This document shows positions 10,801-44,291 of a DNA stretch of 64,000 nt, in pieces; the first letter of the stretch is position 1; each line of letters starts with the position of its first letter. The stretch is from Marsupella aquatica. Taxonomy: Eukaryota; Plantae; Marchantiophyta. Below the pieces are notes generated by a model. It searched no databases and was not told the origin of the DNA. It saw nothing but the letters and a program-made list of their open reading frames with translations. The DNA is taken from the NCBI GenBank assembly GCA_973895155.1, contig OZ316893.1, positions 12,664,359-12,728,358 of the forward strand, read 5' to 3'. The position numbers and the translations under genes were made by a program.

Positions 10801-11720
10801 CGATCTGCCGGTCTAGGTACCCTGGAATCTTGTCGAACTCCGCTTGAGTAAGCCGCTGGCTGCCCTTCAGCTTAAAGAACTTTGCTGGGACCTCAAGAAT
10901 CGCTTCTGCTACCGATCTAAGCCCTTCCTCGCTGAGATATAGTTCGGTGATGTAGTCTCACAGCTTGTTGTAGCTGGAATCCCTGGTGATGGCTGTCCTT
11001 TCGCAATTAACCAGTGCTACCTTGGTCACCAGTAAGTCTCGGAGAACTTAGCACCTACCTCGCCAAACAAGGTCCAAAACCCCAAGGCTATGAGGGTCAT
11101 ACTAACCTCGTAGTCCGGTTCATTGAGTCCACGGTCCCACCCGGCTGGTCTTTTTTCCTCGTGGAGGCCTCGATCATCCTGACTAAATCTCACCACATTC
11201 CGCTCTTCTCCCTCGATAGTCTCCTTGTAAAGATTGACTTGATTCGATCAGAAAGGCGAGTGGATGGCAACGTCCGCGAATTCCAAAAAGGTAGATATGA
11301 GCAAATGGCCCGCAGCGCCATCGGCTCCTCTCTTATGGAGGTGCCAGGATGAGCCCAAGCATGAGAAGGCCAGGCCGTTTGGTTATTGATAATGAGCTGA
11401 AGTCGGCGCCTCGGTCCAAGCGTGATTCCTCTAACTGATTTTTACTCCGCTGCCGCCACCGTACCTCGGTCGTGCGTAATAATCCTCTTCCTGAACTCAT
11501 AATTATTCGGTCATCTTAACCTACTCCTAATCTATTCATAATGGCAATAGACGGCTATACGTGCTATTCTACGCTATGGCTACGGTCCTAATGCCCGTAT
11601 AAGACCTAATCTACGATCTGGGTTCGGTTAAGTGACACGTTACCCGTATCACAAAGGTTGTTAGTTTGTCACCTTGATCAGCTCGCCCAACCAAAGGGCC
11701 CAATGTGTAGGCACAACCAC
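7848..11720. mobile_element. GC-rich retroelement-derived fragment with a long accessory ORF (Tat/Ogre-like by architecture)
   Basis: Sharp GC shift and a TGTCGC LTR-like start at 7848. No gag/pol seen and the boundaries are approximate. Confidence 0.4.
8834..10441 (-). pseudogene. Retroelement accessory ORF: N-terminal domain, Pro-rich linker, C-terminal coiled coil, with an internal stop
   Basis: ORFs 9263..10441 and 8834..9199 lie in the same frame, separated by a TAG. A related fragment is at about 24860-25560. Confidence 0.5.
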
Positions 11721-12394
11721 ATCAGCTAACAACTATCATGGCTAGTAGAAGCCACAACTCAAGAGGTCCACATTACTGATTAACAAAAATAAATGAAGAA
11801 TGAATTTGAGTAGTGCAGATCTATCAAACGAGGATCGTCTTGGTAGTAAGCATGTGTGTTTATGAGTGGCAAACTAAATGTGGACTTGGTTGTATTCTAA
11901 CTGTTTCAATACTAACTTGTGCTTGTCTTTGAAACCCACTTTGTTTACCCACTTCGGAATGCATTTATATGCATGCCCATTGCATTATTTACCTTGTGTT
12001 AATATTTCAAAACATATAGCTTAGGTGGCCCCAATTCATGCACATTTTTCCCTGAAAAGTGCCTATCTATGGCAAATTAATAGTAAGATGTGCCCCGGTC
12101 AGTCAGAACTGAATCAACTGCACAACTATTTGGGAGATATATAATATAATAAATGAAGTAGCTGACCGAGTTACAAAATTTACAAATGACTAAACATAGT
12201 CTAACTTCAAGTTCATGTCAATTATATAGGTCAGATTCATTTCTTCTATGGCTATGGAAAATTCAAAGACATTCTGATTAATGAACTAATTTAGTAACCT
12301 AGGTGTCCCTTGTTCATGACGATGTCCGGGTGACCGTGTTTTCTGGCAAGAGCATGTTGGTTCTTTTGAAGTTAACCTTGCATGCTCATAAGTT

Positions 12395-12809
12395 CTACAC
12401 TAAAATCAAAATTATAATTCTAGTAACAAGGGTAGTGGGTATTAAGAAAGGTTCAAGTGAAACTAAAATACTGTTAAACCCTACTTCACCATACTTGCGG
12501 ACCAACACATCACGAAAATTAGTTTTCATACGACATATGATCATAATATCTCCAAGAGAAAATGAAACAGGAATATCATCCAGACTCCTATTCAGATCCA
12601 TGACTTCAATAAAGGACAAAGATGATGCACTCCCACTCCTCTCGGTACGACACCACTGGGTATATTATTGGCTCGTTAGAAACCATAATAGCAGTTGCAA
12701 ACTGAGCTCCAAAATGATAGGTTAGATGTTGCCTCATAGATGGTTTGTCTAAAAGATGGACTCTAATCAAAAACGGATTACGAAGGGGAAGATCAGGGAG
12801 AACAAACAA
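12395..12809 (-). CDS. Tandem pair of small paralogous ORFs (A 12809-12606, B 12601-12395), function unknown
   Basis: Homologous at protein level to the ORF pair in the gypsy LTRs: LPLRNPFLIRVH vs LPLSNPFLIRIH, and PVSFSLGDI is identical. ORF A has no obvious ATG. Confidence 0.6.
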
Positions 12810-12990
12810 TTTAAGAGTTCAATCAAAGGCAAGACAAACAAAGAGTCTAATCCATAGCGAATTAACAGACACATGCAATATACATTAAACCCAAACTAAT
12901 AAAGATAATATAACTAGCAATTATATCTACTTTAAGATTAAAATAAAATGTAATACGTCATATTTTATAAGTTCCCTATAAAAACTTACT

Positions 12991-14838
12991 TCATGTGTGA
13001 CTAGTTCTATTTCTGATAGTCTGGAGTGTTTGGTCCAAGGTATTCAAAGCCCATGACCTTTCTTCTGGCAAATCATTGAAATTTAGTTGTTGATGTACAT
13101 AGGCTGTCAACCCCATAGTTGCACGAGAACTACTTTCACATTCAAGAGAAAGCAGCAAATGCATTCTGAACTTGTCCTCCTTCGATAAGACTCCAATCTG
13201 ATTAGTTTCATATGCAAAATCACGGATATCACGAAGACTCTGCACCAAAAAAAAAGAATTTGGTGAATTGGAAATTAATGAAAAGAATATGCAACCAAAT
13301 AAAATACATTTTTCTTCACTTACCTCATCGTCTAAATCTTTAACACCATGTTCAAAGTTTCCATGATCATCATTATGATTCCAATAATCAGTGCCAATAG
13401 TCTCGATAATATCATCTGCATCTTGAATATCAACTTGACCTTCTTCAGGATATGGTGGAGGTAAAACTATTTTAGATTCTCTCTCTCTTGCTTGAAAAGC
13501 AAGTTGAGGAATGTGTGATGGCCTGTTCACACCTCGTTCTCGCACCGCTCTCACTGTATGGGCATTCCATGTTAGAATGATATCATTTACAGCATTCTGA
13601 ATGAATGGAAGAAGTACAGTAACAATGGAGTATCTATGCAAGGGATTATCCATTTGCAAAAATCCTTCCTCGTATGATAGAGTACGAAATAAGTCCTTAT
13701 AATGACCCAATCCTTGTTTTTTCAAGAATCCCCAAAATGCTTCGATCCTCTGTAAAAATCACAATGATTGTAAAAAATTAGTATGTTCCTTGAAATTCTT
13801 TTTCCTTTTATAAGTTAAAGCCACAAAAACCCTGTGGCAGAGGGGAAACAACCAGGCCATCAAAAAGCCAGCTAAACAACATGACCCCTGGGAGGGCTGG
13901 CATAAAGCATTAACAAGGTACACAGACAACAAATCAGCATCGCGGCCAATGCAACATTGGGCCCCCATAAGTCCCATAGGCAAAAACTTAGTATGTTAAT
14001 AAACATATCAAGCAAATAATTTTGATAACATATAGTTGAGTTTAAGTACTACCTGATTATGAACTGAAGACCCTTTGCAAAAACAATGAGTATTTGGTCT
14101 TGCCCTTTCAAGATTATTTTGGACCATAATATGCTCAGTTGCATAATCAGAACGAATTAATAAAGGATGACCAAATCTTTGAACCGCATTTTTATACCCT
14201 TCATAAATAGTCCGGGCTTTCTTATTTAATGCAACATGCATATACATAACATAATGTGTAGCTCCATCGATAGCTCCATGAATTCTAATTCCATAATTTG
14301 CTAATTTGTCATATGCTGCACAAGAAATTAAACAAAATTAGTACATAATTTCATGATCATGAACAAACTATCTGAATCATATATAGTCAAAAAATGATTG
14401 ATTCAATCTAAATAAAAGGATATAAATACTTGAATTTTACTCACAATCCATATGCCAAATATGCATTGCTTTGGTGACATCGTAAACATGATGTATTAGA
14501 CATCCGCGTGCTCTTGATGCAAGTAATCCTGGAACTAAAACATCCAAGGCATCACGTACAAGCATTCTTGGAACTTTGTATCCAACTCTTTGTAATCCAT
14601 ATATGGGAATAAACTCTAGAATCAATTGCCGAACCTCCTCAAGCGTATATGTTGGATACATTTTCTCTCCATTATTAAATACTTTCAACCATCGCCATAA
14701 AGTAATTCGATCTATTCCAAGTGCTAATGCACATTCCTTCATAGTGTAACCCATGTGAAGTGCTGCCATCACATCTTCACACATTGAATTGATGTTTGTT
14801 GCATCCATATATTTCCCAAATATTCTCCAAAACTCCAA
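12991..14838 (-). CDS. Spliced DDE transposase / integrase-core protein (IS3EU-like rve family) with N-terminal HTH
   Basis: Joining exons at GT-AG introns 14444-14316 and 14052-13750 gives WHMDSYDKLANYGIRIHGAIDGATHY...FGHPLLIRSDYATEH...GSSVHNQRIEAFW...WNAH, the D-D-E motifs of this family. HTH-like ECALALGIDRITLWRWL upstream. A third intron is likely at about 13240-13323. Confidence 0.8.
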
Positions 14839-15183
14839 TGAACTAATACTTTATTTTGCCAGTGTATAATTCCACCTTTTTTAGAACAATTAGAGAACTC
14901 TGTCAGAAAAACAAAGGTCACAAGACAAAAAACCAAGGCTAGTTAGAAAATGTACACTAAGTTGCCATTGCACATACAATAAAATAGGAATATTTTTAGC
15001 AAAAGATACCCTGGATTTACAAAGGATTTGAAAACTATGGAGGGCTCTTTGGTATATTCAATGCCACAATTTAAGCTCTTGAGAGCATCTATTACAAAAA
15101 TAAGCAAAGATACAAATGGGCAAACAAAATCAGTATATAATATTAAAAAAAATTCTGCTCATTATCATGACTATGAATCATGT

Positions 15184-16535
15184 TTATGCATTTTCATTTG
15201 AAAATGTGTAGGCACCACCTAGCTTCTCATTAATTGCAATCCCAACTACGTATACCGGTTCTATAGGGAAACATCTGTATGAGGTGGCGTGCATATCTTT
15301 TCCACGAAGAAAGAAAATATCCCCATCTAATATTGGAATCTTTATTCCATACTCAATAACAACTAGATGTCCACCTCGTTCCTCCATTGAGGGATTTGAT
15401 GCCATGAACATAGTGTATTTACTACAATCATGATCATTATGAACTATATTACAATAGTTCTTTGTAAGAAATAGAGGATATGCTGGTACAGCATGTTTCA
15501 CAACGTTGGGCTTGGAAAAGTGTTGAAGTAATTCTTTGCTTAGATCCATGAAAGGATCTTTGCAATCCAAAAATTCCCTCACTACCGGCCAAAAATAATC
15601 ACAAAATAGTAGGAAAATAATTTCAAATAAGATTCGATGGGAGCATTGCTCATGAATTAACTCCAATTGCAATGCGCTAATTGGAGTTGTATCAGCAATC
15701 TTTAACTTACCCCTGTAGTAACTCACAAAATGTGCTTTTTTTTCTTCTCTCCAATTCACAAGTGGCCCCACAGCTCGCATTGTTTCAATCAATGTTGATC
15801 TCTAATCAGCTCTACGAACAGTCCATTTATGATTGTAGGCATCAATTATTGAATGCCTTAGAAATGGTCGATCGCCCTCTGGAACAACTCCTTTCATTCG
15901 TCCCCCTATTATTTCATTGGTAGACCTATCTTTCCAAATTTCAATAGATGACAAGGGATCCATAACATAAAAGTTACTTGGTATCACCTTCCATACAATA
16001 TGTCGTTATGTTTTCGGTGGGCTAAATCCTCTCTCAATCAAGAAAGCATTTTTATGTTTCACAAGAAACTTAGGGCTTCTCTTCGCAAATGTCTTTACTG
16101 GGATTTTATATTCTTCAAATTTTTCAAAATGATCTGCCTTCCAATTTATATATAAAATTGGATCTTTACGAAACTTTCGGACCCTGGTGGCAATCTCATT
16201 CCCAAGCGAAGATAGATTGTACCGGAAAGTGATCAAGTGGACTATTGTTTTCCACTGATTGGCAATAAAATACTCAGACCAACAACCGGTTTCCCCAAGA
16301 AGTGAAAACCAGAATAAAATTTTGATAACTCTCCCTTCATTTTCCCATCGAAAAAGATGTGCACACCATATTCAAAGAGTAACCAATCACCGAGCAACCA
16401 TTTCAGTAAAAACTGAATATGCAATTTTCCCAACTAAGATGTAAGAGTGATGAGCTCACAGAAATAAATAGCAGCCTTAGGAAGAGGTTGGCTTTTGGTG
16501 ATGTCTGTTGGATTTTGATGATCATTAAATTGAAT
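15184..16535 (-). pseudogene. TET/JBP-like 2OG-Fe(II) dioxygenase, long exon with in-frame stops
   Basis: C-terminal DSBH signature VHND...GGHLVVIEYGIKIPILDGDIFFLRGKDMHAT (HxD...H). A single frame runs from an acceptor near 16535 to 15184 with 5 stops and no frameshift. A basic upstream exon is likely at about 16845-16939. Confidence 0.6.
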
Positions 16536-18096
16536 CTGCACAATAAGATTATTGATCAACATAAAGTGATAAGGAACTTTTACTAATTTAGTATAGTTTA
16601 CTAGTTAATCAATATTTTGCTTGACATCTTGGACCATAGTGATTTCAAATCGAATTCGAAGCATATCAACGCCAGGCACTGAGGATTCCAACAGAAATAA
16701 TCTGAAAGTTTCACCCCCCCCGGAATATCAATTCCTCTTGATTTTACTCACAAAACTATGGTCTCCAAAATATAGCAATATACTGATGATAATGAATATC
16801 TTATAATAGATTGTATACTATTGGCAACAAGGTAAGATTCTTACCATTTCATCAGATTTGGGAGAAGTTTGCCTTTTCTTTCCTCTTCTTTTATTTACTT
16901 TTGCATCATTGTTACTCAATTTTAAGCCTTTCATCGAATCTGCAATGAATGACAATCTATCCTGAATATCAAGTTTTTCATATAATTATTCAAACAAAAA
17001 ATAATACTAACCATTCGCATATCAATCACAGGTACTTATTTGACACATATAATTACTTTATATAGCCTAATCTTTAGGTATGTCTATTTGTTTGTATTAA
17101 CGTATTCCAAACTCCATCAACAAATACAAAATTGAAGTATGCAAATTGCATGCATGCAACAATAGATGAGGCAAAAAGAGAAATGGTCACCTCGTCACCA
17201 CAAATTAGCCAGTTTTCCAAATCCAAAGTTGTCTTCAAAATTGATATCTCTGCACATTCCAAAAAATATATCAAGCTTAAGGTCCCATTGGCCATAATAC
17301 AAAATCTAGTGGATCCAAGTTACTATGAGTCCTCCAAAATATTCTCAATAAAATTTAGAATTTTTCACTCATTTGTCCTTTCCTAATTTGATGGCCTATG
17401 GTTTTAGTCAAAGAGTCTATTGGATAAACTTTAGAGCCAAGAAATATGATCACGAACAGGGGTCAGCAAAGTGGGATCAATGGGATGGAGATGACAATAG
17501 AAGAACCATCTGTCAACTTCATGGGCACTATGATCATATATCTTTCGATCGCAAGCATATCCTTCTGCCTGACATTCCTTCAAACAGTAAAAATGCCACA
17601 TTGTGGGGCATCGAATGCAATGGACAATATCTGTCCAATTCAGGTCATCATGTTCACCACATGCCTTGCATGTATGTAACGGGCAGATAGGGGTGTGTGA
17701 TGGCAGACACACACCGCAAAAAAACCTTACACAAAATCTATCTGAACATTTTTGAACATATTGTGGAGAGTCAAGAGAACCCTCCAAATTCCCCAACTTT
17801 CCACATTGGGCACACTTTGCATGTTTATGTATGCAGTCTTTGCACTTCCACTTCCCATGTTGGCCAGAAGGTGGGGGAAGGCCGACTCCTGGACAATTAT
17901 TCTCTGCTGCATGCAGAGATTGTGCATTGAGATGAAAGTGCCTCAAGCATGGTCCATCACAAATGACTAACTCTCCACCATCGTCACAAATGGCACAACA
18001 ATGGGCTGTTTTTTGGTAGATTTGTTCGCGTGAAAACTTCAAAACATGTGGTCCAAACACAGCTGAATGTCTCACCTCGCCCTTATCTTTTCTACA

Positions 18097-19957
18097 ACAC
18101 AATTTTGGACCGAACGAGAACTATTTCCTCTAAACGAGAAGTGTATTTTCATTTTCTGCCGAATCTCGCGAAATCGGCAGTTTTTTTCATCAAAAACACA
18201 TTTTTGGGGAAATAATGTAATTCGTATCAGAGTTCGGATTGAAACAGCAAATTTAATAATGATCAAAACCAATGAAATTCATACTAACAAACATTCATAT
18301 TATCAAGGAACAATTAGATCCGAAAAAATTTCTCCTCAACCTCATATTCACGCTCTCCGAAGATATATGAAAAGTCTTATCTATAAATCCATATCCACGT
18401 TTCGAGCCAAGTGCGATAACTGTATCGGACTCCGGATTTGAGCCATGAAAGCTCTGACCCAATCTCAGTTTTCTCAGTTTTTGGATATTTACCAAAAATA
18501 TTTTACATCACAGTCGATAAGAATTACTGCACGGTTTGTCAAACTTACCTTGCAGTTACCTCCGCAATTGACCAGTTACCTCCGCAAGTGACCATAGTCA
18601 ACATGCCATTCTTTCAACATCAATGCGCAGTCCAATAAAATTATCGCGAAAACTACGGGCGACAAAAATACTAGTCGACAATACTAAGATCCTTCAGTTC
18701 ATTGGTTAAATTTCAAAATTCCTATCCATATGAAGAAAACTCTTCGCAATACCAACATCAGATAAATTTATCGCTTCAATTTCAAAATTGCAACTTCCAT
18801 ATGAAGGAACCACTTTTGCAATACCAACATCAGATAAATTTATCGCTTCAATTTCAAAATTGCAACTTCCATATGAAGGAACCACTTTTGCAATACTAAC
18901 ATCAGATAAATTTATCGCTTCAATTTCAAATTGCAACTTCCATATGAAGGAACCACTTTTGCAATACCAACATCAGATAAATTTATCGCTTCAATTTCAA
19001 AACTATATAATTTTGCCACGATGCACGTGTGAGAATGAAATTGGAAATCCAAGAAATATACCATTTTCTGTTATTTTGTCGTTTAGGGTGACAGCCAATC
19101 AAAAGTGGACACGTGGGCCAACCCCTCAACAGACACTATAAAAGGGCCACCGCCGATAAGTTTTTTGCACAGGAGGATGCGATAAGTTTATCGCACTCCG
19201 CATTCGAATTGAAAATATGACTTCCTAAGACACATAAGCCCTGAATTCAATCTTTCACAAAAATAACAACTCCGATAAATTTATCAGATTCTCAATTACT
19301 CCTCTTTCCATGAAAGGAATGAAGACTCCGATAAATTTATCGGAATGAAGGCAACACCTCTCTAAACACTGGATCAAATGATTGCAACAGAGGAATGCAG
19401 AATGCGATAAATTTATCGTAGTCCGCTCGAATCTGGACATTTTACACTAAATGACTAGTTAGTCTTACATGGAGAACTTGAACAGGAATGGTTGTTCCGA
19501 TAAATTTATCGGGTTTTCGGTAGAAAGAGTCGAATCGCTTGGGAGGAATGTAAGACTCGATGGGAGTTTGGTATTCGCTCTCAGTCAGGAGATATTTGCT
19601 CTGGCGAAAGCAAACGTTTTATGGGCAGCCCGCTCCTCTTTATATAGGAGACGCTCTAAACCATGGTTAATTTCCTCTTAACCATGGTTAAGTTTCCCCT
19701 TTACCTGGGTTAGTGCATGGTCGTTCCTGGATTACGCGGTTCGGACCAAGTTACTTGCAGTTCGGACTTTTTCACTAACGGAATGTAAAACCCGATGCAC
19801 GTATCGCTCCCTGCATTCCCGCGGCGATGCAATGGAGGAAAGTGGCATTTCGGAGAGTTTTTGCCAATTTTATCGGTCATTGCATTGCCTTAGAAAAAAA
19901 ACAGGATCGGGCTAAATGAGAACTCCGACACACTTCTCGGTCGGTCCAAAATCGTGT
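18097..19957. mobile_element. Non-autonomous TIR DNA transposon, 1.86 kb, superfamily unclear
   Basis: TIR ACAC(A/G)ATTTTGGACCGA(A/C)CGAGAA at both ends. TCTACA is duplicated at 18091-18096 and 19958-19963. Confidence 0.85.
18720..19002. repeat. About 72-bp tandem repeat, about 4 copies, each with the palindrome GATAAATTTATC
   Basis: CAATACCAACATCAGATAAATTTATCGCTTCAATTTCAAA at about 18747, 18819, 18891 and 18962. Confidence 0.9.
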
Positions 19958-20139
19958 TCTACATGGTTGTTTAGGACGAGCCATGCTTACACATTCATAA
20001 ACAAAATTAATTGTAAGAAATCATAAAAAATTAGGATAAACTCAGAACTAACAAATCATCAAAAATACACAATAATACTACTATTCAATGAGCTATTCAA
20101 GATTCATGTACAAATTAGTTGCATACTTCAATCTATATA

Positions 20140-20937
20140 ACAAGTCCAAGTACATGTTGTTCTCTTAGCCATGCAGGTCTCACACAAGATGCTGGTATGA
20201 TAAGAGTCGTGGCTGCCAAATGTCCCTTATTTGAACTACTCATAAACAAAATTAATATTCACTAAGGAAAGCAGGGTTTGAGAGATGGAACGCAAAATTT
20301 CTAGAGCCACATTCCCTTACCAGAATGGGACCAAACTTTGCTTGCACATACCCCAGGTAGTAGACAACGTGTTGGTGAAGTAAGAGCACCAACAAAGCTT
20401 TGGTTGAGAAATGAAAAATCGGAGCCTTTGTGGGGTACTCTTGCCTCCTAAGCAACCTCTGACTTCTCTCCCTTGCCACTATTCAAACCAGCTCTGACTT
20501 GCTAGATCTGCAACCAAGTCCAAGTGCATGTTTTCCTCTTAGCCAGGTCCCTAACAAGATGGTGGTTCATAAGAGTCGTAGCTGTCAAATGTCCCTACTT
20601 TGAAGTACTCAAAAACCTATCGTTCGTTAAGGGAAGGAACATTTAAGAGATGGAAGCAGAGGGCGTGGAATTTTTGGAGCCACATTCCCTGGGCTGAATG
20701 GCACCAAACTTGGCCAGCACGTACCTCAAGAAGTAGACAATGTCCTGGCAAAGTAACAGCATGAACGGAGATTTCAGTGAGAAAATGAAAAATTGGATGC
20801 TCCGAGGCGGTCCTCCTGCCTCCCAAGCCACCTTCGAATCCTCTCCCTTGCCACTACTTCGATCAGCTCGTACTTGCTAGACCTGCAAACAAGTCCAACT
20901 ACATTGTGTTCTATCAGCCACGTCCCTAACAAGATGA
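20140..20937 (-). repeat. About 375-bp satellite, left part (about 2 diverged copies)
   Basis: Reverse complement of the units at 36020-37404; truncated at the inversion breakpoint. Confidence 0.8.
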
Positions 20938-22946
20938 TCTACAGAATATGGATACCACATTTTGCTCACATTGCAGAACCTCTCTATGATCTTCTAAGGA
21001 AGAATGTGAGGTTTGTATGGAGTGCAGGCCATACAAAGGCTATGCAACAATTGAAAGAAGCTTTGACTAGCTCACCGGTGTTACGACCTCTGAAGTACAA
21101 TGGTATTGACCCAATAATTGTGACCATTGACTCAAGTCCTCATGCATCTGGATGGGCAGTTGGGCAAGATGAGGAAGGACAAAGGTTTGCCGCACGGTTT
21201 GGGGCAAAAATATTTACAGAAAGACAGAGGCATTATCCTCAAGTAAAACGAGAGTTGTGGGGTGCGAAGGTAGCACTTCGCCAAGAAAGAGACTATTTGA
21301 TAGGAGCAAATGTAATACTGGAGATAAATTGCCTACCCTTGTTGGGAATGATAGCCAATTGTGATACTCCAGATATTGCAATGCTTCGATGGATAGCATT
21401 CATCAGAATGTTTAACCCTGAGTTAAAGCACATTGCTGGGAGAGATAATCCAGTAGCGGATATGCTTTCCCGAGCTCGCTATAGGGACAAGGAGGACCAA
21501 GGAATGTGCCTTCATAGTACATATGGAGAAGATGAAGGGGAATTGTGGTTTGAAGAGGAAGCTTACTCTGGGGAATTGTTGCAGATAGGACGTTACCTTG
21601 CCACGTTGCAGAAAGATTCAACATGGAGTAAGCAAGATTTCAACAAAATTCGGAAGAAGTCTTACCAATTCATGGTAAGAGATGGATCCCTTTGGAAGCA
21701 TCCAAAGAAGAAGGGGCACATACTTCTAAGGGTCATTGGTAGAGATGAAGAGAAACACAAAATTTTACATGACTTACATGATTCCGACGTGGCAGGACAT
21801 AAGGGGCGAGAAGCTACTTATGAAAGGATTCGAAGACTATATTGGTGGCCAGGAATGTATGTAGATGTAAGCAAGTATGTGGAAACTTGCAAAGTGTGTC
21901 AACTCTACTCAAAGGTGAAGCATTGCGATGGACTAAAACCCACGTACTCTCTTTCCCTACACTACTAATGGGCTGTAGATGTGGTACACATGCCGAGAGG
22001 AGTAAGAGGAGCCAAGTACCTTGTCTTGGCTATTGAGGACCTCTCCTCTTACATTGAAGGAAGAGCCTTGACAACAAATAAGACCGAGGCAATATGCAGA
22101 TTTGTATTGTAGGACATCATTGCAAGGTATGGATGCTTTGATCGCATGAGGGCAGACAGAGGGGAGCTCAATGCAAAGGAAGCGGTTGCATTTTTCAGGA
22201 AGTTTAGGGTGAATCTCAAATTGACAACTGCTTACAATCCTGAAGGTAATGGCAAGAGTGAGAGGGGACACCAACCAATTGTGAATGCCTTGATTAAGGC
22301 ATGCAAGGGAAGAATCTCACTTTGGCCAAATTTCCTTCCCCTAGCACTCATGGCACACAGAACAACTTGCACATCGGTAACAGGATATGCACCTTCAGAG
22401 TTGATCAATGGTCAACTTCCACCCATGCCAATAGAAGAAGACATTAATAGTTGGAGGGCAATAGAGTGGGAGGATGGTGTATCTCAAGAGGATTTGATTC
22501 TTCGTCGCATAGAGCAGTTTGATCACACTCCTACAAAGATCCAAGGCGCCATTAAACAATTGAAGCAAAAGAGAATGGCTAACAAATCTCGCTTTGACAA
22601 GACCCATCGGTTGAGACCCAAGATAATCCAAGAAGAGGATTGGGTCTTAGTTTCTGAAGGCGGTCTCGGACAAAATCACTCCTCGATCAACAAATTTGCA
22701 CAACGTTGGAGAGGCCCATTTGTAGTAGTTACTATTCACCCAAATTCCACTTACACTCTCAGTGAATTGGATGGAGCAATTCATCGTGTGCCTTATGCAG
22801 GAAAAAGAGTGAAAATATTCAAAAGGCGAACACGTTTTTTAGAGGAAGATCCCATCGATTCAGACCAAGAAGAGGAAGAAGAGGAAGAAGAAGAAGAAGA
22901 AGATGAAGAACCTGAAAAGCAAGAGGAAGAAATATTCATTGAGTAA
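20938..22946 (+). pseudogene. Ty3/gypsy pol, 3' half (end of RT, RNase H, integrase)
   Basis: YRIWIPHFA; RNase H IDSS...KRELWG...NPVADMLSR; integrase zinc finger LHD..GHKG..CKVC; core RADRGEL..YNPEGNGKSER; RWRGPF. Internal stops at about 21966 and 22110. Confidence 0.92.
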
Positions 22947-23070: not shown

Positions 23071-23154
23071 TGTCGTGAGGATTCTTTGTTTAGTAAGTTC
23101 CTCCTAAGTATAGCTTAGTAGTATAGGATAGTAGTTTAAATTCTCGCGTATGCA

Positions 23155-23600
23155 GTCTATAGTGTGCATGCTACAGTGCACAACCTACAGTGTGCATGCT
23201 ATAGTACACGGTCTACAGTAGGCATGCTATATTGATTCGATCTACAGTGTGCATGCTACAGTGCAAGACCTACAGTGTGCATGCTATAGTGTACGATATA
23301 CAGTGTGCATGCTACAATGTACGATCTACAGTGTGCATGTTACAGTGTACGATCTACAGTATGCATGCTACAATGTACAATCTACAGTGTGCATGCTACA
23401 GTGTACGGTCTACAGTGTGCATGTTACAGTGTACGATCTACAGTATGCATGCTACAGTGTACGATCTACAGTGTGCATGCTACAGTGTACGATCTACAGT
23501 GTACGGTCTATAGTGTGCATATTACAGTGTACGATCTACAGTATACATGCTACAATGTACGATCTACAGTGTGTAAGCTACAGTGTACTGTCTACAGTTG
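23155..23600 (+). repeat. 28-bp (2x14) minisatellite inside the LTR
   Basis: TACAGTGTGCATGC / TACAGTGTACGATC units; mirrored at about 42385-42775. Confidence 0.95.
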
Positions 23601-24253
23601 CTCCACTCACATAACTACAGTACTAGCACACTTACTTGCCTTAGATGTGTGACACATGGCTTCCATCCGTGTGCCATGCTTGATCCGTGTGCTTGAGGTG
23701 TGAGCACTATAAATAAAGAGGAGAGGGGCTCTCTCCCCTCACTCCCCATTTTTCATCAACTAAGTTGTGAAGTCTTAAAAATCTATTGGACTTGATGATC
23801 TCTTCTATGGATATAACCCTTATGAAGTAGACCCACTCATGCACTCTTGCTTAGAGCTTCGGCTCGGCCAAGGATATTTTGTATGAGTCGGACCTTCAGA
23901 AAGTGTTGTCATTTGATAGGAGATGGTTATTAAGTTCTAAAGAGTTGGAAAGTGCTCAACAATGCCTTGACATCATATGCTCCCTTTTGGGTGAAATCCT
24001 TATGAAGTAGACCCACTCATGCACTCTTGCTTAGAGCTTCGGCTCGGCCAGAGATATTTTGTATGAGTTGGACCTTCAGATAGTATTTCATTCAAAAGAA
24101 GATCAACCTATTAAGACAAACATCTGCATGTATATACTTAGAGTTAACTCAATGCATGGTATTTGTTTGAAATGAATGATCTTTTCATTGAATGATTCTA
24201 TATCTTGTCATTAGAATGAAAATTAGTTGGATGGAATATTTGATAGTACGATA

Positions 24254-24671
24254 ATGCCCAGACCAGTACCTATTCTTCCTCTCTCTAATCCTTTCCTTAT
24301 TAGAATTCATGTACTCCAAAAAGAGATAATGCGTCAGCATATGACTTTTCACTTTGGAGAAGCATTTGCAACTGCGGTGTTAAATTCAATAGAGCCAATT
24401 GTATACCCTTATGTAGTTTACGGGTAGGATTGGGTTTGCACAATTTTTATCTTGTATTGAGATGGATCTCAACAAACCTCCATCCGATGAGCCTCCCGTT
24501 TCTTTCTCGTTGGGAGATATTTGTTTTGTAACTTGACCCAAGGTAGCTGCCAAGGAGGCAATAGTCCGTAGGTATGGAGAAAAGGGTTATGATGTTGTGC
24601 TTTCATCCACGGAACCGTTCCTTGTGGTGTCTGCTACCCAGTCTAGAATAGTAATCATGATCTTAACTTAA
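24254..24671 (+). pseudogene. Small ORF pair A and B inside the 3' LTR
   Basis: MPRPVPILPLSNPFLIRIH...ILY* followed by MDLNKPPSDEPPVSFSLGDI...IMILT*, each with one premature stop. Confidence 0.6.
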
Positions 24672-24858
24672 GTTCTCTCTTGACACTAGCAGCCATAGGC
24701 CCGGTGCTTCCTCAAGAACCACATTTTCCCCCCAGACACCGCTGTCTCCTCAAACAATCTACGTCATGCTTGAGTAGCTGGACTGGATCCAAGATAGACT
24801 TGTTCTCTCTTTTTGTCATGCCCATCTCCTCCGCGGCATCCTGGCATGCCTCTTCCAA

Positions 24859-25560
24859 CTATTGGGTGTTGCTCGTCAGTTGTACCACCAGTTGGTCTTG
24901 TTTTGTGGCTTCTTGTAGAAGCTGTGCCACCTCCACCTTCAGGACGTCAACCTCTGATGTATCTCTTTGGACTGGAGTGTCGGCTTTCTTTGCGTCCTTC
25001 TTCCAGATGATAGCTTGTCCCTTCAAGCTATCAATTTGTGTCTGTAGCCGCGCGATCTTTGCATCCTTTCCAGCTCCAGCTTGTGTGGCTAGGGCTGTCT
25101 TGGCTTTAGCTTTGGTGATCTGGGCCAAGGCGGTCGCAAGTTAGGGCTATAGCAGTTGTAGCTTGGCCTCTTGGGCTGAGGCTTCATTTAACAATTGGGT
25201 TGCCCTGATACTGCTCTATCCTCCTTGCGGCTTTAGACTGGGCATGCCCTGCCTTTACTAGCTGCAACCAATTCTTGGTTGAAGAAGTAAGCCACCTTGC
25301 AGGCCATAAACACCCCCATATCTTGACCAGCTTCCACGGAGAAGTTGTCGAGCAACCCATTCAAATATGTCCCCGGACCAAAGTTTCTTGGGTTCACCGG
25401 GTCATGCCTACTAGGGTTTGGGCAAGGGTCTCCCTCTATATGGGTGGGGGTGGGGGCAGATAGATCCAGTTCTGGGGTGACAAGAACAGGGATAGATGGA
25501 TCTGCTGAGGAGGAGGGCTCTATAGGAGCTAGCGTGGGGGATGTTGTCTTAGGGTCAAAG
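24859..25560 (-). pseudogene. Degraded retroelement accessory coiled-coil ORF, related to 8834-10441
   Basis: FSVEAGQDMGVFMACKVAYFFNQ resembles FSQTMSRELATYIGQQVSTYFQP and is followed by a coiled coil. Confidence 0.4.
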
Positions 25561-26399
25561 GCTGGACGTCGTTAAAAGGGATGTCACTTGTATTTGGGTT
25601 GGCCACCTTGTAACTGTCATCTTTATGTCTAAGGTTGTCATGGAAGAGACGCCATTGATGTGACCCTCATAAAAGGACGTCCAGGCTGTCACTTGTTTGC
25701 CCCCTTTTTCTTCTAAGCCATCTTTGAAACTCCATTCAATCTTGGGGATAGCTTGATACCACTTAAGAGGGCCTTATAAATTCTAAATTTAAATTATAGT
25801 ATTTCATACTTTAACTCACTTTAGGAATAATCACCAAATTTTAGTATTCATTGTGGTGATCATGAGACTATAGTTAAGAACGTTTGTCTAACACAAAAAT
25901 TGAGAGCGTGCAACTCACCATCGCAATGAGAATAGTAGCAAAATGGCTACCTTAAATACTCTCTTTTGGTCACATATATAGTGGGCACAATTGCCAGAGG
26001 AGCAGCAGGAGCAGGAGTAGGAGCGCCGACGGCCATCACGCACCCGTCACCAACAGGATCCCCGGAAGGATAAGGGCAAGAAGCCAGCCAAGAAGCCAAC
26101 CAAGAGGAGCCGCAAGAGCCCATTCTAGTTATTTTGTAGAGATACATGCATGAGAGTGACTTGTCATGCCGGAGCTTAGGGTAGGAGAGGCAGCATAGGT
26201 TTAGAAGGGCGGACCTAGCATCAGATATTTCCCCCCTCTTGTCCATGTATAGGGTTCTTTGAAGCCCTATCATTTTGTTCATGCTTTTCCATTTTATAAA
26301 ACAACAATTTTGCCTTCCACATTGGGTTCCAAGGAAAACCCCTTGCAAATAATGTATTGAATCCTGTGTGATCATAATTTTGTGAACCCTTTAAGAACT

Positions 26400-35700: not shown

Positions 35701-36019
35701 ATAATTTAAAACAAAAACACAGACACAAAATCTCAATAGGACAAATTAAGTAACTTCAGTAGGCTCCCAAACAAGGTAGCCATACCCATTGAGATTTCTT
35801 ATATGTGTTTTTATTTCTAGGCTTTCAAGTGTACGTATCAGGAGTGCAATTCATTTCAACCCAACCTGAGGAGGGAGATGAGCCGCCAACAAAATCAGCG
35901 GCCAACATTTGTCACACACTAAAGTTATTGAACCTGATGATACACCCTCAAACTTGGTCGAACACTCCTTTGAATCCTTGCAAGAGAGAAGTCGAAATAG
36001 ACTTGGCAAGCAGCAGAAG

Positions 36020-37404
36020 TCGAAGCTGGTAAGGAGGCAGGAGGACCACCTCGGAGCATCCGATTTTTCATTTCTCACTGAAATCTCCGTTCATGCTGTA
36101 ACTTTACCAGGACATTGTCTACTACTTGAGGTACGTGCTGGCCGAGTTTGGTCCCATTCCGCTTAGGGAATGTGGCTCCAAAAATTCCACGCTCCCTGCT
36201 TCCATCTCTTCAACATTGCTTCCCTTATTGAACGATTGATTTCTGAGTACTTCAAAGCAGTGATGTTCAACAGCTACGACTCCTGTGATATTGTCATCTT
36301 GTTAGGGACATGGCTGAGAGAACACAATGTAGCTAGACTCGTTTGTAGGTCTAGCAAGTACGAGCTAATCAAAGTAGTGGCAAAGGAGAGGATTCGAAGG
36401 TGGCTTGGGAGGCAGGAGGACCACCTGGGAGCATCCGATTTTTCATTTCTCACTGAAATCTCCGTTCATGCTGTTATTTTGCCAGGACATTGTCTACTAC
36501 TTGAGGTACGTGCTGGCCGAGTTTGGTCCCATTCCGCCCAGGGAATGTGGCTCCAGAAATTCCACGCTCCCGACTTCCATCTCTTCAACATTGCTTCCCT
36601 TATTGAACGATTGATTTATGAGTACTTCAAAGTAGTAATGTTCAACAGCTACGACTCCTGTGATACTGTCATCTTGTTAGGGACATGGCTGAGAGAACAC
36701 AATGTAGCTAGACTCGTTTGCAGGTCTAGCAAGTACGAGATGATCGAAGTAGTGGCAAAGGAGAGGATTCGAAGGTGGCCTGGGAGGCAGGAGGACCGCC
36801 TCTGAGCATCCAATTTTTCATTTCTCACTAAAATCTCCATTCATGCTGTAACTTTACCAGGACATTGTCTACTACTTGAGGTACATGCTGGCCGAGTTTG
36901 GTCCCATTCCGCCTAGGGAATGTGGCTCCAGAAATTCCACACTCCCTGCTTCCATCTCTTAAATGTTACTTCCCTTACAGAACGATTGATTTCTGAGTAC
37001 TTCAAAGCAGTGACGTTCAACAGTTGCGACTCTTGTGACACCACCATCTTGTTAGGGAAGTAGCTAAGAGAACACAATGTAGTTGGACTTGTTTGCAGAG
37101 TACAAGCTGATTGAGATAGTGGCAAAGGAGAGGAGTCGAAGGTAGCTTGGGAGGCAGGAGGACCTCCTCGGAGCATCTGATTTTTCATTTCTCACTGAAA
37201 TCTCCGTTCATGCTGTAACTTTGGCAGGACATTGTCTACTACTTGAGGTACGTGCTGGCCGAGTTTGGTCCCATGCCGCCTAGGATTATGGCTCCAGAAA
37301 TTCCACGCTCCCTGTCTATCTCTTCAACATTGCTTCCCTTACTGAACAATTGATTTCTAAGTACTTCAAAGTAGTGATGTTCAATAGCTACGACTCCTGT
37401 GATA
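36020..37404 (+). repeat. About 375-bp satellite, right part (about 3.7 copies)
   Basis: GGAGGCAGGAGGACC at about 36033, 36408, 36783 and 37149. Confidence 0.92.
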
Positions 37405-38766
37405 GATGCAGGCCCCAAGAAATCTCCTTACCTCTGAGGTAGTTCTGCAGTTCTCCATATCCTTGATGGCATCCACTTTTGCTTCACATGGTCTTCTTCC
37501 ATAAGGGCCACAAACTTGCCCTACTACCATGATCTCTTGTAACCCGAAAGCTGACTTATCCCCAGATAGAGTTACTCCTACTTCCTTGAGTCTTTGTAGA
37601 ATAGCTCCCACATCTTGTAAGTGCTCCCACACAAACTGTCTTAGACCATCTCCTCTAAGTGTTTGATCCCTCTCCTTGTACAAACACCCTTTTATGGGGA
37701 TGTCATCAAGAAAAGGTCTAGTCTTCTCTGGAACAAATGGTTGCAAAATCCTATTCATGGCATTTTGCATATGGGCCACTGAGTTAGTTTCACCTTGAGG
37801 AAGGGTGCACATTCTTAACAACCCTAGTGGCGTTCTCATAGTAGTAATGTCCCTGCTATCTTGGGCAAGCTGAAACTGATCATACCCTGAGTATAAGTCG
37901 CTAATGGAGTAGATTGCTCTCCCAGCAAACTCCTCAGCAAACTCATCCACCACAGGTCCTGTGCCCACATTCCTTATGGTGACCTTGTTTGGTGGCTGCA
38001 TGTCTTGAATGAACCTTAGCTTCCCATTCTTCTTTCTCACCGTGAACCACTGATTTGAGTACGGAGCGTTTGATCTCTCAAGGATTTTGGTATCTAACTT
38101 CTCCTTGAGTAACTCCACCAACTTAGGCATCAGTGCTCGTGGTACAGGAATTGGCTTAAGGTCCCAAGGAACGTGTGGAACAGTGAAGATTACCATTGGT
38201 GTGATCTCCCTTGGATCAACACATCCAATCTCTCCAATGGAAAAGGAAAAGGCCTTTTCATGTTTGATGATCATCTCATTGAAGGCTCTTCTCTCTTCCT
38301 CTAGTAAACCCTTATCACCAATCTTTAATTTGAGCAACGTCTCCTCAGTGAATTTATGCCCAATCTTAGTACGATCTCTAAGACTTGGCTCCTCCTTTGC
38401 TTGCTTCAATATTTCCTTAGCCTCAGATGGCAAGGGAACTGCTGCAGGTCGCACCTTCTTGTCCACTGTTTTGTACTTTGTGTGTACTTCTGCAAAGCGC
38501 TCAATGTAACCATACACATCCCTTTCCACCTCCACTTCTCCATTTTCTTCCTCAATGTCTCCAATAATCTCTCGAAGAGAGGGTGGTAATCCCCTTTCCT
38601 CTAGTACTCCTTCTATTCTCTCTTCAACCTTCAACACTCCTAATGTGAACAAATCTTTTTCTTTCTTTTCCAACATCTTCTGAGCTCGCCTCTTCACACC
38701 ACCTTTATGAAAATAGCTCACTTCACTAGTCCTACTCACACCAACAAAAGAGGAATGAACCTCCAT
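37405..38766 (-). pseudogene. Ty3/gypsy reverse transcriptase, truncated at the inversion breakpoint
   Basis: KKNGKLRFIQD, DLYSGYDQF, LPQG, FLDDI, ending VRRFLGACI. Confidence 0.93.
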
Positions 38767-38819
38767 AGACGAGACTAAAGGCTTGGCGTCCTGCCTGCTC
38801 GCTTCTCTTAGCGGGATGC

Positions 38820-39704
38820 CTAGTCGAAACCCTTCATACTCTGATCGGACCTGTACTCCTCCACTGTTCTTAATTCCCGACGATCTCTTGTACTACCTGG
38901 CCGAAGTGTGGGAAATTGAATTTTCTTCAAGTCATCCTTGCTCTTCACTTTTGCCATGTGAGTACCATCGTCAAGTACCATGGTCTCTACTCGTAATTCC
39001 GTGATGAAAGGAACACCAAGAATAAGAGGATATGGAAGTTTTTCAAATACAAAGACATTGATAGCTTCTACCACATTCCCAAGTTTGATCATGATCTCGG
39101 GACATGCTCCCCACAAGGGATTTGCCCTTGTGCCCACTGAATTGACATTCCATTTGATGTCACAATCAATCTTCCAATGCCCTTTTTGGTATGTCTCTTT
39201 AGACATTAGATTCAACTCAGATCCTGAGTCTAGGAGTGCCCGAATTCCTCCTTCAGCACCAAGCAATTGCACCTCAATCTCCGGGCAAGCTCTTGCCCAA
39301 TACGGTCGGATTGTTTCCCGCAAGTCCACCTCATGTAGGGCTACATTGCCATGAATACCTGAAGTTGCTTCATGGTGACTCATGGTAGCACAAAATACAT
39401 TTCCCTCCAATTCTTCTTCTTCTTCTTCATCTTCTAGATCATCTTCATAGTCATAGCTAAGAATCTTGGCAGTTAGTGCATGAGGTCCCTCCTTGTAAAC
39501 CCTTTTTCTTCTTGCCCTATCCAAGATCTTGCCTTGTAAGTCTAAACGAAGACTTCCAAAAAGTTCTCCATTAGTGAACCCCCTAGCCTCTTGCTGCCAA
39601 AATTTCTTGGCAATCACTTCTGGATCAACAGTTTGCTCCACCTCTCTAGTAAGCAAATAGCCTGGGCTCTTCTTAGCACTTTTCTTTGGGGTGTCAGTAT
39701 CCAT
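38820..39704 (-). pseudogene. Gypsy aspartic protease region
   Basis: ALLDSGSELNLM and LILGVPF motifs. Confidence 0.88.
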
Positions 39705-39944
39705 TGAGCTTCCATGGGAGATTTCTTCTTGACTCTTGCTTGTGGACGCTTTAGGCTCCTCAAATCAAACTCCTTTCTCTTTGGCTTGACGTGTGAAGCG
39801 AGGTCCTGCTTCGGGTCTCTGTTGTTTTTCTCTCCTTTGGGTTTCTTCCATAGAAGTGCCTTCATACCTCCTCTTATCTTCCACAGCGGCATTCCATGCT
39901 GCTCCTACTTCCGCAGTGATAGAGTTGATCAACACAGGCACATC

Positions 39945-41030
39945 TTAACCGGATTTTCTCCGGATACTTTCCGCAAGTCTCTTCCTCTCAATAATATCAA
40001 GATGTTCTATGGAAGGCAGATCCTTCTTAACTTGAAGACTGAAGACAGAAGGATCACCATACATCGCTGCAGCACTAGAAACTTTCTCTCTCATTCTCTG
40101 TTCCACAATCTGCTTCATTCCTCCTCGGTTCACATTCATTGGTATTGGCTCTCCAGAATCAACAAATGCAATCTTTCCTTCCACAAACTTGACATGTCGA
40201 AGTCGCAATGCTTCTGTCAGTTCCCCACAATCCCTTCTGTGATGCTCCTTGCTATCACACCACAAACAATTCCAGTTTTTATTCAAGGTTGCTAGTGATG
40301 TTCCACCAGGGTTTTTGTTCTCCAAGGCTTGAATTGAAAGAGCAAGATTTGCTATCATGTCTGTCAATGATGCTATGTCGCCCCCTTCTGTGATGCTGCT
40401 TTTGACTTCTTTTTCTCCTCCATCAGTAGTGCTTTCTTCTCTGACTTTTCTCAAGTCTAGAATGGGAGCTTCCGCCTCTTGATCGACCTCCCTTCTCCTC
40501 CATTGCTTTGTCACCTTGTGGATTGCAGCTTCTGCTTGTTCCCAAGTGACTTCATCCGCATCTGGAGCAATAACATCTAGAGCATTGTCCAACTCTACCC
40601 TCAAAGATATATCAGCTGCACGGATCAAAAGACCCCCTCTTCTGAGACTGATTATTGTCAGATCCTTTGAAGATAGCTGATGGTAGCGCCTATTGAATTC
40701 CCTCAATAATTCTTGAGGTCCCAACTTCTTGTTTTTCTCTTGTACCCAACCAAGGAACGTGGCTACAGTAACTCGATCTGGATCTTCAAATCGAAACTCC
40801 TCTCTCACCCTCATTTCAAATGTTTTCCAATCCTCTTTGGCTCCTTTAGCAATCTTGGTGATGATGTCTTTCAATTCTGATTCCACCAATGATGCAAATT
40901 CATGAATGGCAACCTTCTCACTGATCTTGTGGATGGCTACCTCTATCCAATACTCTTTTAAGTACCGGGTTGCTCTTCTCCCGTCGAACTGCCCAAACTT
41001 TGCTAACAAAGCTTGTAAGCACTTGGTCAT
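39945..41030 (-). pseudogene. Gypsy gag with CCHC zinc knuckle
   Basis: GQFDGRRATRYL, CLWCDSKEHHRRDC; premature stops on both sides. Confidence 0.85.
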
Positions 41031-41224
41031 ACGACTTGCTTCCTCCTTCTTCTGGTTCTCAGGTGCCTCTCTTCATGCTTTGGCCTCCATCAAACTCATA
41101 AACATCTCAGTCATCTCTTTCATAGTTCCTCCTACCATTGTGAACAACTTCTCCTTTGCTTCTATTTTCTATCAAGCTTCTTCTCTCGTCAATATCCTTT
41201 TATCTTTGACACTAGCCTCAAGTT

Positions 41225-41242
41225 TCCCCAGTATGGTCGCCA
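41225..41242 (-). promoter_or_regulatory. Primer-binding site
   Basis: TGGCGACCATACTGGGGA, 3 nt after the 5' LTR end. Confidence 0.7.
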
Positions 41243-41245
41243 ACA

Positions 41246-42857
41246 TGTCTGGGGGGAAAATGTGGTTCTTGAGGAAGCACCGGGCCTATGGCTGCTAGTG
41301 TCAAGAGAGAACTTAAGTTAAGATCATGATTACTATTCTAGACTGGGTAGCAGACACCACAAGGAACGGTTTCGTGGATGAAAGCACAACATCATAACCC
41401 TTTTCTCCATACCTACGGACTATTGCCTCCTTGGTAGCTACCTTGGGTCAAGTTACAAAACAAATATCTCCCAACGAGAAAGAAACGGGAGGCTCATCGG
41501 ATGGAGGTTTGTTGAGATCCATCTCAATACAAGATAAAAATTGTGCAAACCCAATCCTACCCGTAAACTACATAAGGGTATACAATTGGCTCTATTGAAT
41601 TTAACACCGCAGTTGCAAATGCTTCTCCAAAGTGAAAAGTCATATGCTGACGCATTATCTCTTTTTGGAGTACATGAATTCTAATAAGGAAAGGATTAGA
41701 GAGAGGAAGAATAGGTACTGGTCTGGGCATTATCGTACTATCAAATATTCCATCCAACTAATTTTCATTCTAATGACAAGATATAGAATCATTCAATGAA
41801 AAGATCATTCATTTCAAACAAATACCATGCATTGAGTTAACTCTAAGTATATACATGCAGATGTTTGTCTTAATAGGTTGATCTTCTTTTGAATGAAATA
41901 CTATCTGAAGGTCCAACTCATACAAAATATCTCTGGCCGAGCCGAAGCTCTAAGCAAGAGTGCATGAGTGGGTCTACTTCATAAGGATTTCACCCAAAAG
42001 GGAGCATATGATGTCAAGGCATTGTTGAGCACTTTCCAACTCTTTAGAACTTAATAACCATCTCCTATCAAATGACAACACTTTCTGAAGGTCCGACTCA
42101 TACAAAATATCCCTGGCCGAGCCGAAGCTCTAAGCAAGAGTGCATGAGTGGGTCTACTTCATAAGGGTTATATCCATAGAAGAGATCATCAAGTCCAATA
42201 GATTTTTAAGACTTCACAACTTAGTTGATGAAAAAAGGGGGGTGAGGGGAGAGAGCCCCTCTCCTCTTTATTTATAGTGCTCACACCTCAAGCACACGGA
42301 TCAAGCATGGCACACGGATGGAAGCCATGTATCACACATCCAAGGCAAGTAAGTGTGCTAGTACTGTAGTTACGTGAGTGGAGCAACTGTAGACAGTACA
42401 CTGTAATATGCACACTATAGACCGTACACTGTAGATCGTACACTGTAGCATGCACACTGTAGATCGTACACTGTAGCATGCATACTGTAGATGATACACT
42501 GTAACATGCACACTGTAGACCGTACACTGTAGCATGCATACTGTAGATTGTACACTATAGCATGCATATTGTAGATCGTACACTGTAACATGCACACTGT
42601 AGATCGTACACTGTAGCATGCACACTGTATATCGTACACTATAGCATGCACACTATAGGTCTTGCACTGTAGCATGCACACTGTAGATCGAATCAATATA
42701 GCATGCCTACTGTAGACCGTGTACTATAGCATGCACACTGTAGGTTGTGCACTGTAGCATGCACACTATAGATTGCATATGCGAGAATTTAAACTACTAT
42801 CCTATACTACTAAGCTATACTTAGGAGGAACTTACTAAACAAAGAATCCCCACGACA
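41246..42857 (-). mobile_element. 5' LTR of the gypsy element; contains ORF pair 41730-41313
   Basis: TG...CA ends, preceded by CCGC in element orientation, followed by the PBS and gag. Confidence 0.95.
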
Positions 42858-44291
42858 GCGGGATGACCATTCCAGGTCCAATAACTAAGGTGGGTCTAGC
42901 AAGTGTGCAACACATTAGCAACGGGGAAGGTTTAGAGTATAGACATGATTAGACAGAGAGGTCATCCGTTGAAGACAAATGCCAAATATAGTTATCGGCA
43001 TTATCTTATCGGATCGACCCCACTTAGCGTATATAGAATCTTAGGATAGGACACGCCATTTTGTGATCTGACAATTAGAGAAACCTAGGATAGGTTAGAC
43101 TTGGCGTTGTGACCGTTCATGGCCATAGCCCTTAGAAAATATTTAGTGCACCCCCTCGTAGAGGCAATGGGATTTTAGGTTTAGAATCGGGTATCCACAG
43201 AATGTGCGAGAGTCCCGGCCAGTCGCGGAACTCGACTACCTTAACACTTAGCTCCGGCGTCGCTGACTCCGACGCCGAGCTCCCTTATGGTCCAGGCCCA
43301 AATAGGCCATCCCAGGAGGACTCAGCATGGGGAGACTTGTGAGCGACGAGACGTGTCGCTAGCGAAGGCAAGGAGCCAAGCTGGTGACACCACTAGTAGA
43401 AACCGGGGGGTATTTAGACCCCATTAAACGACTATTCAATACCGTATAGGACTTGGAAACGACTGGGAAGGACTCTAGTCCTTTATAGGACTGCGAGTCG
43501 TATGTTTTGTTACTATAATCAACTGAGTCCTTTATAGAACTGGTTTATAAGTCGTTTAATAGACTGGATTTTCAGTCTATTTTAGTCTTTGTGTGGGTAG
43601 CTTTGGTGAGTCTTTTTCAGTCTTTTATGGGCTGCGATGGTGAGTCGTTGGGAACAACTCAAAAGGTTATGGAGGGTAGTCTTTAAATATACTTTGTGGG
43701 TTTATAAAATGACTAAAGTAGACACTTTGTGGGGGTTTATAAAACGACTCAAGTAGACACTTTGTGGGGTATGTACAAGTCTTTCATGTCAACTGGAAAT
43801 GAGTGATGAAGACCCCACTATACTACTTGGAATGAACTCACTCTTGTGCACAAATAACACATTTCATTCATGTTTTATTGTGTACTTGGAATGAACTCAC
43901 TCTATAAGGTCACCATTCACCATGTTAACATTAGAACCTCACACAAATTTTCAGAAAGCCATCTTCTATACCATGTACACTAATATGAATTCACAGATTC
44001 AAACATCATAGACTACAAAGAAGGTCACAAAGCATTCGTCTATACCATACACACTAATACTGAATTGATACAAAACAGATTCAAGTATCATAGACAATCA
44101 CCATAGAGCCATAGTTTGACATCAATCACTTGTTTCATACATACAAAATTCAGAAATATCAATGTCACACACAACGGCTCCTTCATCCTCTTTACCAAAT
44201 GGAAAAATTGGTACAGATATTTCTTGGATTTTTCCAAGGCAATGTCAAAATGTAACACAATTCACATGATTCTATCTACACTTGTATTCAG

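Follow-up and report, generated by a model that had tools for sequence, protein, structure and literature searches.

The 64,000-nt stretch of Marsupella aquatica DNA analysed here (the window; contig OZ316893.1) contains a gypsy element whose LTRs each hold two short, adjacent reading frames, A and B (Table 1). Its two parts represent one gypsy element that was split within RT and had one half flipped, and the LTRs are therefore mutually inverted. A single 4-bp target duplication flanks the outer ends of both. The gag-frame ATG (41246-41244) overlaps the final LTR base, the integrase stop lies 125 nt from the LTR, and the two halves total 9259 bp. With 8 mismatches in 1139 bp between the LTRs (0.7% divergence), this is a young copy. 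Inverted arrays of a 375-bp repeat occur at both RT breakpoints (20139-20937 and 35982-37404), and the approximately 16 kb between them appear to be flipped, or else mis-assembled. The insertion site of the element is the end of a decayed, itself repetitive coiled-coil ORF (24739-25700, minus strand).

The A/B cassette is located downstream of the TATA-like box, at a distance of about 540 nt; between the box and A there are 19 ATGs, none of which opens a frame longer than 20 codons. The end of B is 67 nt short of the point where the LTR ends and gag starts. The 14-bp array on the promoter side of the LTR includes 11 copies of TGCATG (23151-23600), out of 37 across the window; we take this hexamer to be an RY-like site for B3 factors.

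The features of the element fit Phygy, a lineage of plant Ty3/gypsy elements outside the chromoviruses; this likeness is based on such features rather than on an RT tree. The 4-bp NCGN duplication, the compact interior and the lack of a chromodomain are common to both (PMC6317226): NCGN was found at both ends of the element as well as at the end of copy 3 (see below), and a Pfam scan of the pol ORFs revealed neither a chromodomain nor a second RNase H. The size of the element falls within the 7656-9968 bp given for Phygy (PMC6317226). The dominant Phygy primer is tRNA-Trp (PMC6317226). The element here has a primer-site-like sequence, and the window contains no host tRNA. No extra ORFs are recorded for Phygy, but only ORFs of at least 250 codons were sought (PMC6317226). 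Two further sources add that a liverwort likewise contains Phygy elements, and that a moss survey excluded short LTR transcripts (PMC12885004 and PMC7466625).

Table 1. Positions of the annotated features in the window.
Feature	Position	Strand	Remark
3' LTR of the gypsy element, TG...CA, 1668 bp	23071..24738	+	repeat comparison; contig loose ends at 24738 in 3/4 runs
14-bp tandem array, promoter-side part of 3' LTR	23133..23640	+	ends approximate; repeat families D1 and D4
TATA-like box in 3' LTR	23708..23714	+	putative promoter function
ORF A, 68 codons, 3' LTR	24254..24460	+	in-frame stop at 24425-24427
ORF B, 69 codons, N-terminal DLNxxP, 3' LTR	24462..24671	+	in-frame stop at 24534-24536
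4-bp target-site duplication, NCGN type	24739..24742	+	identical 4 bp at 42858-42861
End of RT, RNase H, integrase (flipped half)	20934..22946	+	
gag, protease, most of RT	37381..41246	-	several stops and frame breaks
Primer-binding-site-like sequence	41226..41242	-	
5' LTR of the same element	41246..42857	-	inverted relative to 3' LTR
ORF B, 5' LTR	41313..41522	-	same in-frame stop as 3' LTR copy
ORF A, 5' LTR	41524..41730	-	same in-frame stop as 3' LTR copy
Copy 3, 5'-truncated 3' end of sister-family gypsy LTR (most likely)	12323..12803	-	
A' of copy 3	12606..12803	-	open frame without start codon, cut at ~12803
B' of copy 3, 68 aa	12395..12601	-	intact; DLN present, EAR-pattern proline absent
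NCGN target sequence after terminal CA of copy 3	12319..12322	-	
Transposase (HTH + rva_4 integrase core) of low-depth unit	12991..14808	-	neighbour only; copy 3 inserted on its 3' side

Selection on the A and B reading frames

The original prediction placed A and B, as ORFs of about 68 aa each, within both LTRs. Their location was confirmed on both strands, and the frames are indeed 68 and 69 codons long, but each LTR copy carries an in-frame stop that had been overlooked. Owing to these stops, the LTR copies of A and B are missing from the list of ORFs of 60 aa. In the contigs of all four sequencing runs, a sense codon stood at the position of the A stop in at least 93% of the contig depth and at that of the B stop in at least 85%. 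The stops therefore belong to the element and not to the family: they are private to the present element, and the related family copies are mostly open. Because a young element carries both stops in both LTRs, A and B are probably dispensable in cis for it.

Comparison of the LTR pair with copy 3, a diverged A/B pair at 12.3-12.8 kb, over 128 codons gave pS 0.69, pN 0.34 and an omega of about 0.24, at a dS close to saturation (Fisher p 3e-9). Mismatches were distributed over the three codon positions as 53/35/76, and for A and B alike the coding frame had the lowest omega among the six frames. The proteins of the LTR and of copy 3 are 60% identical for A and 47% for B; outside the ORFs, alignment of the LTR with the DNA around copy 3 was no better than chance (846 and 80 of 1000 shuffles score at least as high). 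The codon-based test thus revealed purifying selection, and the proposed conservation at the protein level in spite of DNA divergence was upheld. Among the indels listed (12 of 16 entries), one of ten lay in the cassette as against nine in the leader (p 0.03), and 7 of 14 other cassette variants were synonymous among the variants listed (40 of 206).

None of the three A copies in the window is intact, only one of the three B copies is, and the family has no match in Pfam, PDB or Atlas, as might be expected if the conserved LTR DNA contained A and B only by chance or as dead frames. However, the codon-level selection next to flanks that cannot be aligned, the 53 related clusters of the same size and the confident predicted folds make this explanation extremely improbable. 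Judged by their sequence evolution, A and B are real, selected protein-coding genes. We have very little doubt about the anatomy itself, that is, an A/B pair in the 3' part of the LTR of two Phygy-like gypsy families, a location seen for these two families in the window.

The third copy and its neighborhood

Copy 3 had been taken as evidence that the cassette moves between class I and class II elements. Its A-then-B order and close spacing stand (1 nt between the A stop and the B start in the LTR copies, 4 nt in copy 3), but A' has no start codon and only B' is intact. Copy 3 begins about 190 nt past the transposase stop on the same strand and its flanks show no significant LTR similarity. Both features would agree with an accessory module common to the gypsy element and the DNA-transposon cluster, and DNA transposons could host some of the database homologues. 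The contigs argue otherwise. For contigs aligned to 11600-20130, depth at 12455-12739 was 3157, 8981, 52544 and 41572 in the four runs, as compared with 68, 148, 689 and 137 at 13025-13309, and over the cassette alone it exceeded that of the transposase body 46- to 300-fold; although depth summed over contigs does not measure copy number, the change at copy 3 is abrupt. In all four runs the contigs diverge from the window sequence at 12799-12803, and intact homologues from the database extend beyond this break point of A' by about six residues at the N-terminus. At the other end, the B' stop is followed at a distance of 72 nt by the terminal CA (67 nt for B in the main LTR), and this in turn by NCGN. 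Beyond 12322, two contigs of one of the four runs, among the loose ends listed (24 of 898), continue into a gypsy primer-binding site, which, compared by eye, has 13 letters in common with that of the main element.

The depth step, the terminal CA, the NCGN sequence and the primer site therefore identify copy 3 as a truncated LTR end, most likely that of a sister gypsy family inserted beside the transposase. With regard to cargo, copy 3 was neither at the depth of the transposase unit nor continuous with this unit in other copies. Together with the break in the contigs and the missing start codon of A', these data leave a module common to the two classes very unlikely, and movement between them is not supported. 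The alternative envisaged in the original prediction, an LTR remnant with flanking LTR homology, proved right as to the LTR end, but the homology of the flanking DNA has decayed to chance. A complete solo LTR with a duplication at both ends was not found at this position, the left end being missing. A 690-letter contig at body depth spans 11919-12321 and then passes into other sequence, not into the cassette; its depth value is found again at 12911, and this recurrence suggests an empty site at the position of copy 3. No joint across this site was present among the joints listed (15 of 52).

We also asked whether the segment 18090-19957 could be the half that the sister LTR lacks, but its inverted ends and an empty site in all four runs ruled this out. 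This high-depth insertion of 1867 bp has inverted ends of 35 bp; it contains 72-bp repeats and a TATA-like box, but no long ORF.

The low-depth unit (11840-18090, minus strand) comprises an NSD/EDM2-like PHD gene and the rva_4 transposase, and may be a DNA transposon carrying chromatin-related cargo. Its frame 15184-15780, which had no Pfam hit, presumably encodes a 2OG-Fe(II) dioxygenase-like protein, judging by motif. The PHD gene occurs twice in the window (17434-18120 and 53844-54548; 68% protein identity), once near the rva_4 transposase and once near a CACTA transposase with BRCT and F-box-like ORFs. Thus, the PHD gene, rather than A/B, may be the cargo common to transposon types. A proline-rich coiled-coil frame without a Pfam hit (9263-10075) lies within 8100-11700 on the minus strand.

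The A/B protein family

A four-sequence profile search returned 54 clusters at E<=0.001. P0015 (1274 aa, with zinc-finger-like repeats) was excluded as a false positive, and the 53 clusters kept comprise 22 of A-type and 31 of B-type, most of them 63-110 residues long. The A and B profiles are homologous, with a profile-profile probability of 98.4%, and the resemblance between A and B noticed in the original prediction is thereby substantiated; for single A-versus-B sequence pairs, 6-230 of 5000 shuffles reach the score. In a tree of 63 rows and 72 columns, the A-type and B-type proteins occupy opposite sides of one branch (support 99/95), a split that is partly circular because the labels were taken from profile scores. 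The A and B of copy 3 cluster with homologues other than those of the main LTR pair. By these sequence comparisons, A and B are ancient paralogues. P0044, P0051, P0061 and part of P0094-P0115 represent a divergent A-side subfamily plus two single-type tandem doubles (P0044 and P0051), suggesting that some elements have homodimers or other arrangements.

The A-then-B order extends well beyond the window. An A-type C-terminus with its stop was found in another frame upstream of B in 14 of 22 N-terminally extended homologues (better than 150 of 150 shuffles), which fall into about nine related groups; in these 14, the A stop precedes the B start by 1-8 nt. The overlap test was negative in the remaining eight, two of which are in-frame fusions. 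In total, three in-frame A-B fusions were found (P0012, P0029 and P0093), and three A/B pairs lie on contigs of equal size (7922, 966 and 921). The coupling, the fusions and the paired contigs indicate that the A-then-B order is old, and the bicistronic, tightly coupled arrangement proposed for the LTR is supported by the testable homologues. From such an old order we infer that A and B likely form a physical dimer, although this complex is putative.

Both proteins are predicted to adopt a strand-helix-helix-strand-strand fold (pLDDT 87 for A and 89 for B), in which the C-terminal hydrophobic part corresponds to two predicted strands. K26 (45/49 family members) and R30 (39/49) are located on one predicted helix, and the net charge of the family proteins is only about +1. 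In a 19-residue hydropathy window, none of 66 sequences exceeded 2.0 and 13 exceeded 1.6. No Pfam family matched more than one of 49 members, the best E value of the A/B profiles against PDB sequences was a non-significant 0.055, Foldseek with the predicted structures of A and B returned nothing at E<=0.001 in the libraries searched, and Atlas contained no match. A likeness to KH and ribbon-helix-helix domains was unsupported by Pfam or Foldseek. With B' as the sole query, a word-indexed search gave no homologue, and two metagenome scans for cassette loci produced 60 and 412 pattern matches, none of them confirmed. The first 14 residues of the CACTA transposase (51308-51355, minus strand) resemble the N-terminus of A (0-1 of 5000 shuffles, picked post hoc), but the family profiles do not recover this match (6 bits), and we regard it as chance or a convergent motif. 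No published description of the family was found in the literature searched, which lay outside subscription journals and Repbase; A and B are apparently an LTR-encoded microprotein pair undescribed so far.

Possible roles of the A/B pair

The B-type proteins are distinguished by a DLN motif, present at the protein start in 26 of 31 clusters and in the form DLNx(x)P in 20 of 31; the only A-type clusters with DLN are the two fusions. Within the variable tail of the B-type proteins, the motif is nearly invariant (D 28/28, L 28/29, N 29/29). It is retained away from the start Met in six proteins, is doubled in P0023 and lies in a predicted coil. This conservation reflects shared descent and not independent gains, and may be structural. 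DLNx(x)P is found in the LTR copies of B and is absent from B' of copy 3 and from 10 other B-type clusters; one B-type subfamily has DLN without any proline nearby. The DLNx(x)P pattern is an EAR motif, a plant repression motif, and EAR motifs normally repress (PMC9956375). Most characterized plant repressors carry DLNx(x)P at the C-terminus; only 5 of 65 cases lie elsewhere (PMC9956375). The fungal effector Jsi1 binds TPL in a DLNxxP-dependent manner and has been proposed to disturb TPL/TPR repression (PMC8126959).

By analogy with Jsi1, A and B could constitute a putative nuclear dimer whose B subunit engages TOPLESS to blunt the silencing of the element, a proposal that we consider quite possible, if short of probable. 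Given the 19 short ATG frames ahead of it, A would be translated from a nearer start site or after splicing, and B would be produced by reinitiation past the A stop across the spacer of 1-8 nt. The beta-alpha-alpha-beta-beta half-folds predicted for A and B would then pair, and the exposed DLN(x)xP tail of B would dock on TPL/TPR and interfere with repression, whereas copies with broken A/B, such as the present element, would be served in trans. Several observations weigh against this proposal: the full EAR pattern is missing from a third of the B-type proteins, including B'; the motif is N-terminal in B and mostly C-terminal in plant repressors; the short ATG frames stand ahead of A; a young element carries both stops in both LTRs; and TPL binding could repress instead of relieve.

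The last point leads to the opposite role, in which the dimer would bind its own LTR or RNA and the EAR tail would recruit TOPLESS together with histone deacetylase, thereby keeping copy number low or confining expression to some cells. Such self-restraint would agree with the usual repressive action of EAR motifs (PMC9956375), with the conserved basic helix, with the repeated sites offered by the LTR tandem array and with the recent insertion of an element in which neither gene is intact. However, no DNA-binding fold was matched among PDB sequences or by Foldseek, and the frames remain open in most family copies, a pattern that a trans-acting brake would explain less readily; we consider this role unlikely.

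The position of the B stop, 67 nt before the gag ATG, the conserved tight stop/start coupling and the conserved K26 and R30 on one helix could also point to factors of the particle, RNA or translation. A and B would then be peptide-coding uORFs tuning gag-pol, or binders of Gag or genomic RNA, with a structural DLN. A folded domain and two deep paralogue clades exceed the needs of a regulatory uORF, the DLN lies in a predicted coil, persists where it is not next to the start codon and occurs twice in one protein, and the net charge is low; this role appears somewhat unlikely.

The nearest known architecture is that of sORF1 and sORF2 in the Drosophila MDG1-group retrotransposons; these too are a pair of short accessory ORFs that lie upstream of gag and are under selection, and sORF1 is nuclear (bioRxiv 10.1101/2025.03.14.642691). 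Compared by description only, the two MDG1 proteins (about 110 and 70 aa) are mutually unlike, whereas A and B are paralogues, and sORF2 has a membrane fusogen-like helix, whereas A and B are predicted to be soluble alpha/beta proteins with an EAR-like tail (bioRxiv 10.1101/2025.03.14.642691). The single TM helix with a polybasic region of sORF2/FAST-like fusogens was not found in A/B by hydropathy of the 66 sequences. The MDG1 schematic places the sORFs apart from the LTRs (bioRxiv 10.1101/2025.03.14.642691), in contrast to the A/B pair. Like B, Jsi1 and other pathogen effectors with DLNxxP are non-host proteins, but Jsi1 is a secreted fungal effector with demonstrated binding, whereas B is a transposon product known by its motif alone (PMC8126959).

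Genes that overlap the LTR are known from animal retroviruses, namely sag of MMTV and nef of HIV, both on the promoter (U3) side. A and B, in contrast, are located downstream of the TATA-like box and next to the primer site. As for anti-silencing factors encoded by transposons, VANC is known to bind tandem motifs. VANC of MuDR/VANDAL has the function proposed here for A/B, but belongs to a class II element and has a MAIN-related fold, to which no similarity was found in A/B (PMC13547354).

In the broadest reading of the pair, an undescribed LTR-encoded heterodimeric microprotein of a plant retrotransposon lineage would hijack TOPLESS through an EAR mimic, and even a solo LTR would be an effector gene complete in itself, with trans effects on the silencing of the element and on TOPLESS targets of the host; this putative scheme is somewhat unlikely. 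Surveys of extra ORFs in plant retrotransposons used a floor of 250 codons (PMC6317226), below which a family of LTR genes of about 70 residues would go unseen. The formation of solo LTRs also multiplies the genes they bear and would thus create a high-copy source of a trans-acting regulator. If B binds TOPLESS, a retrotransposon would be using the trick of a fungal effector against the co-repressor of its host.
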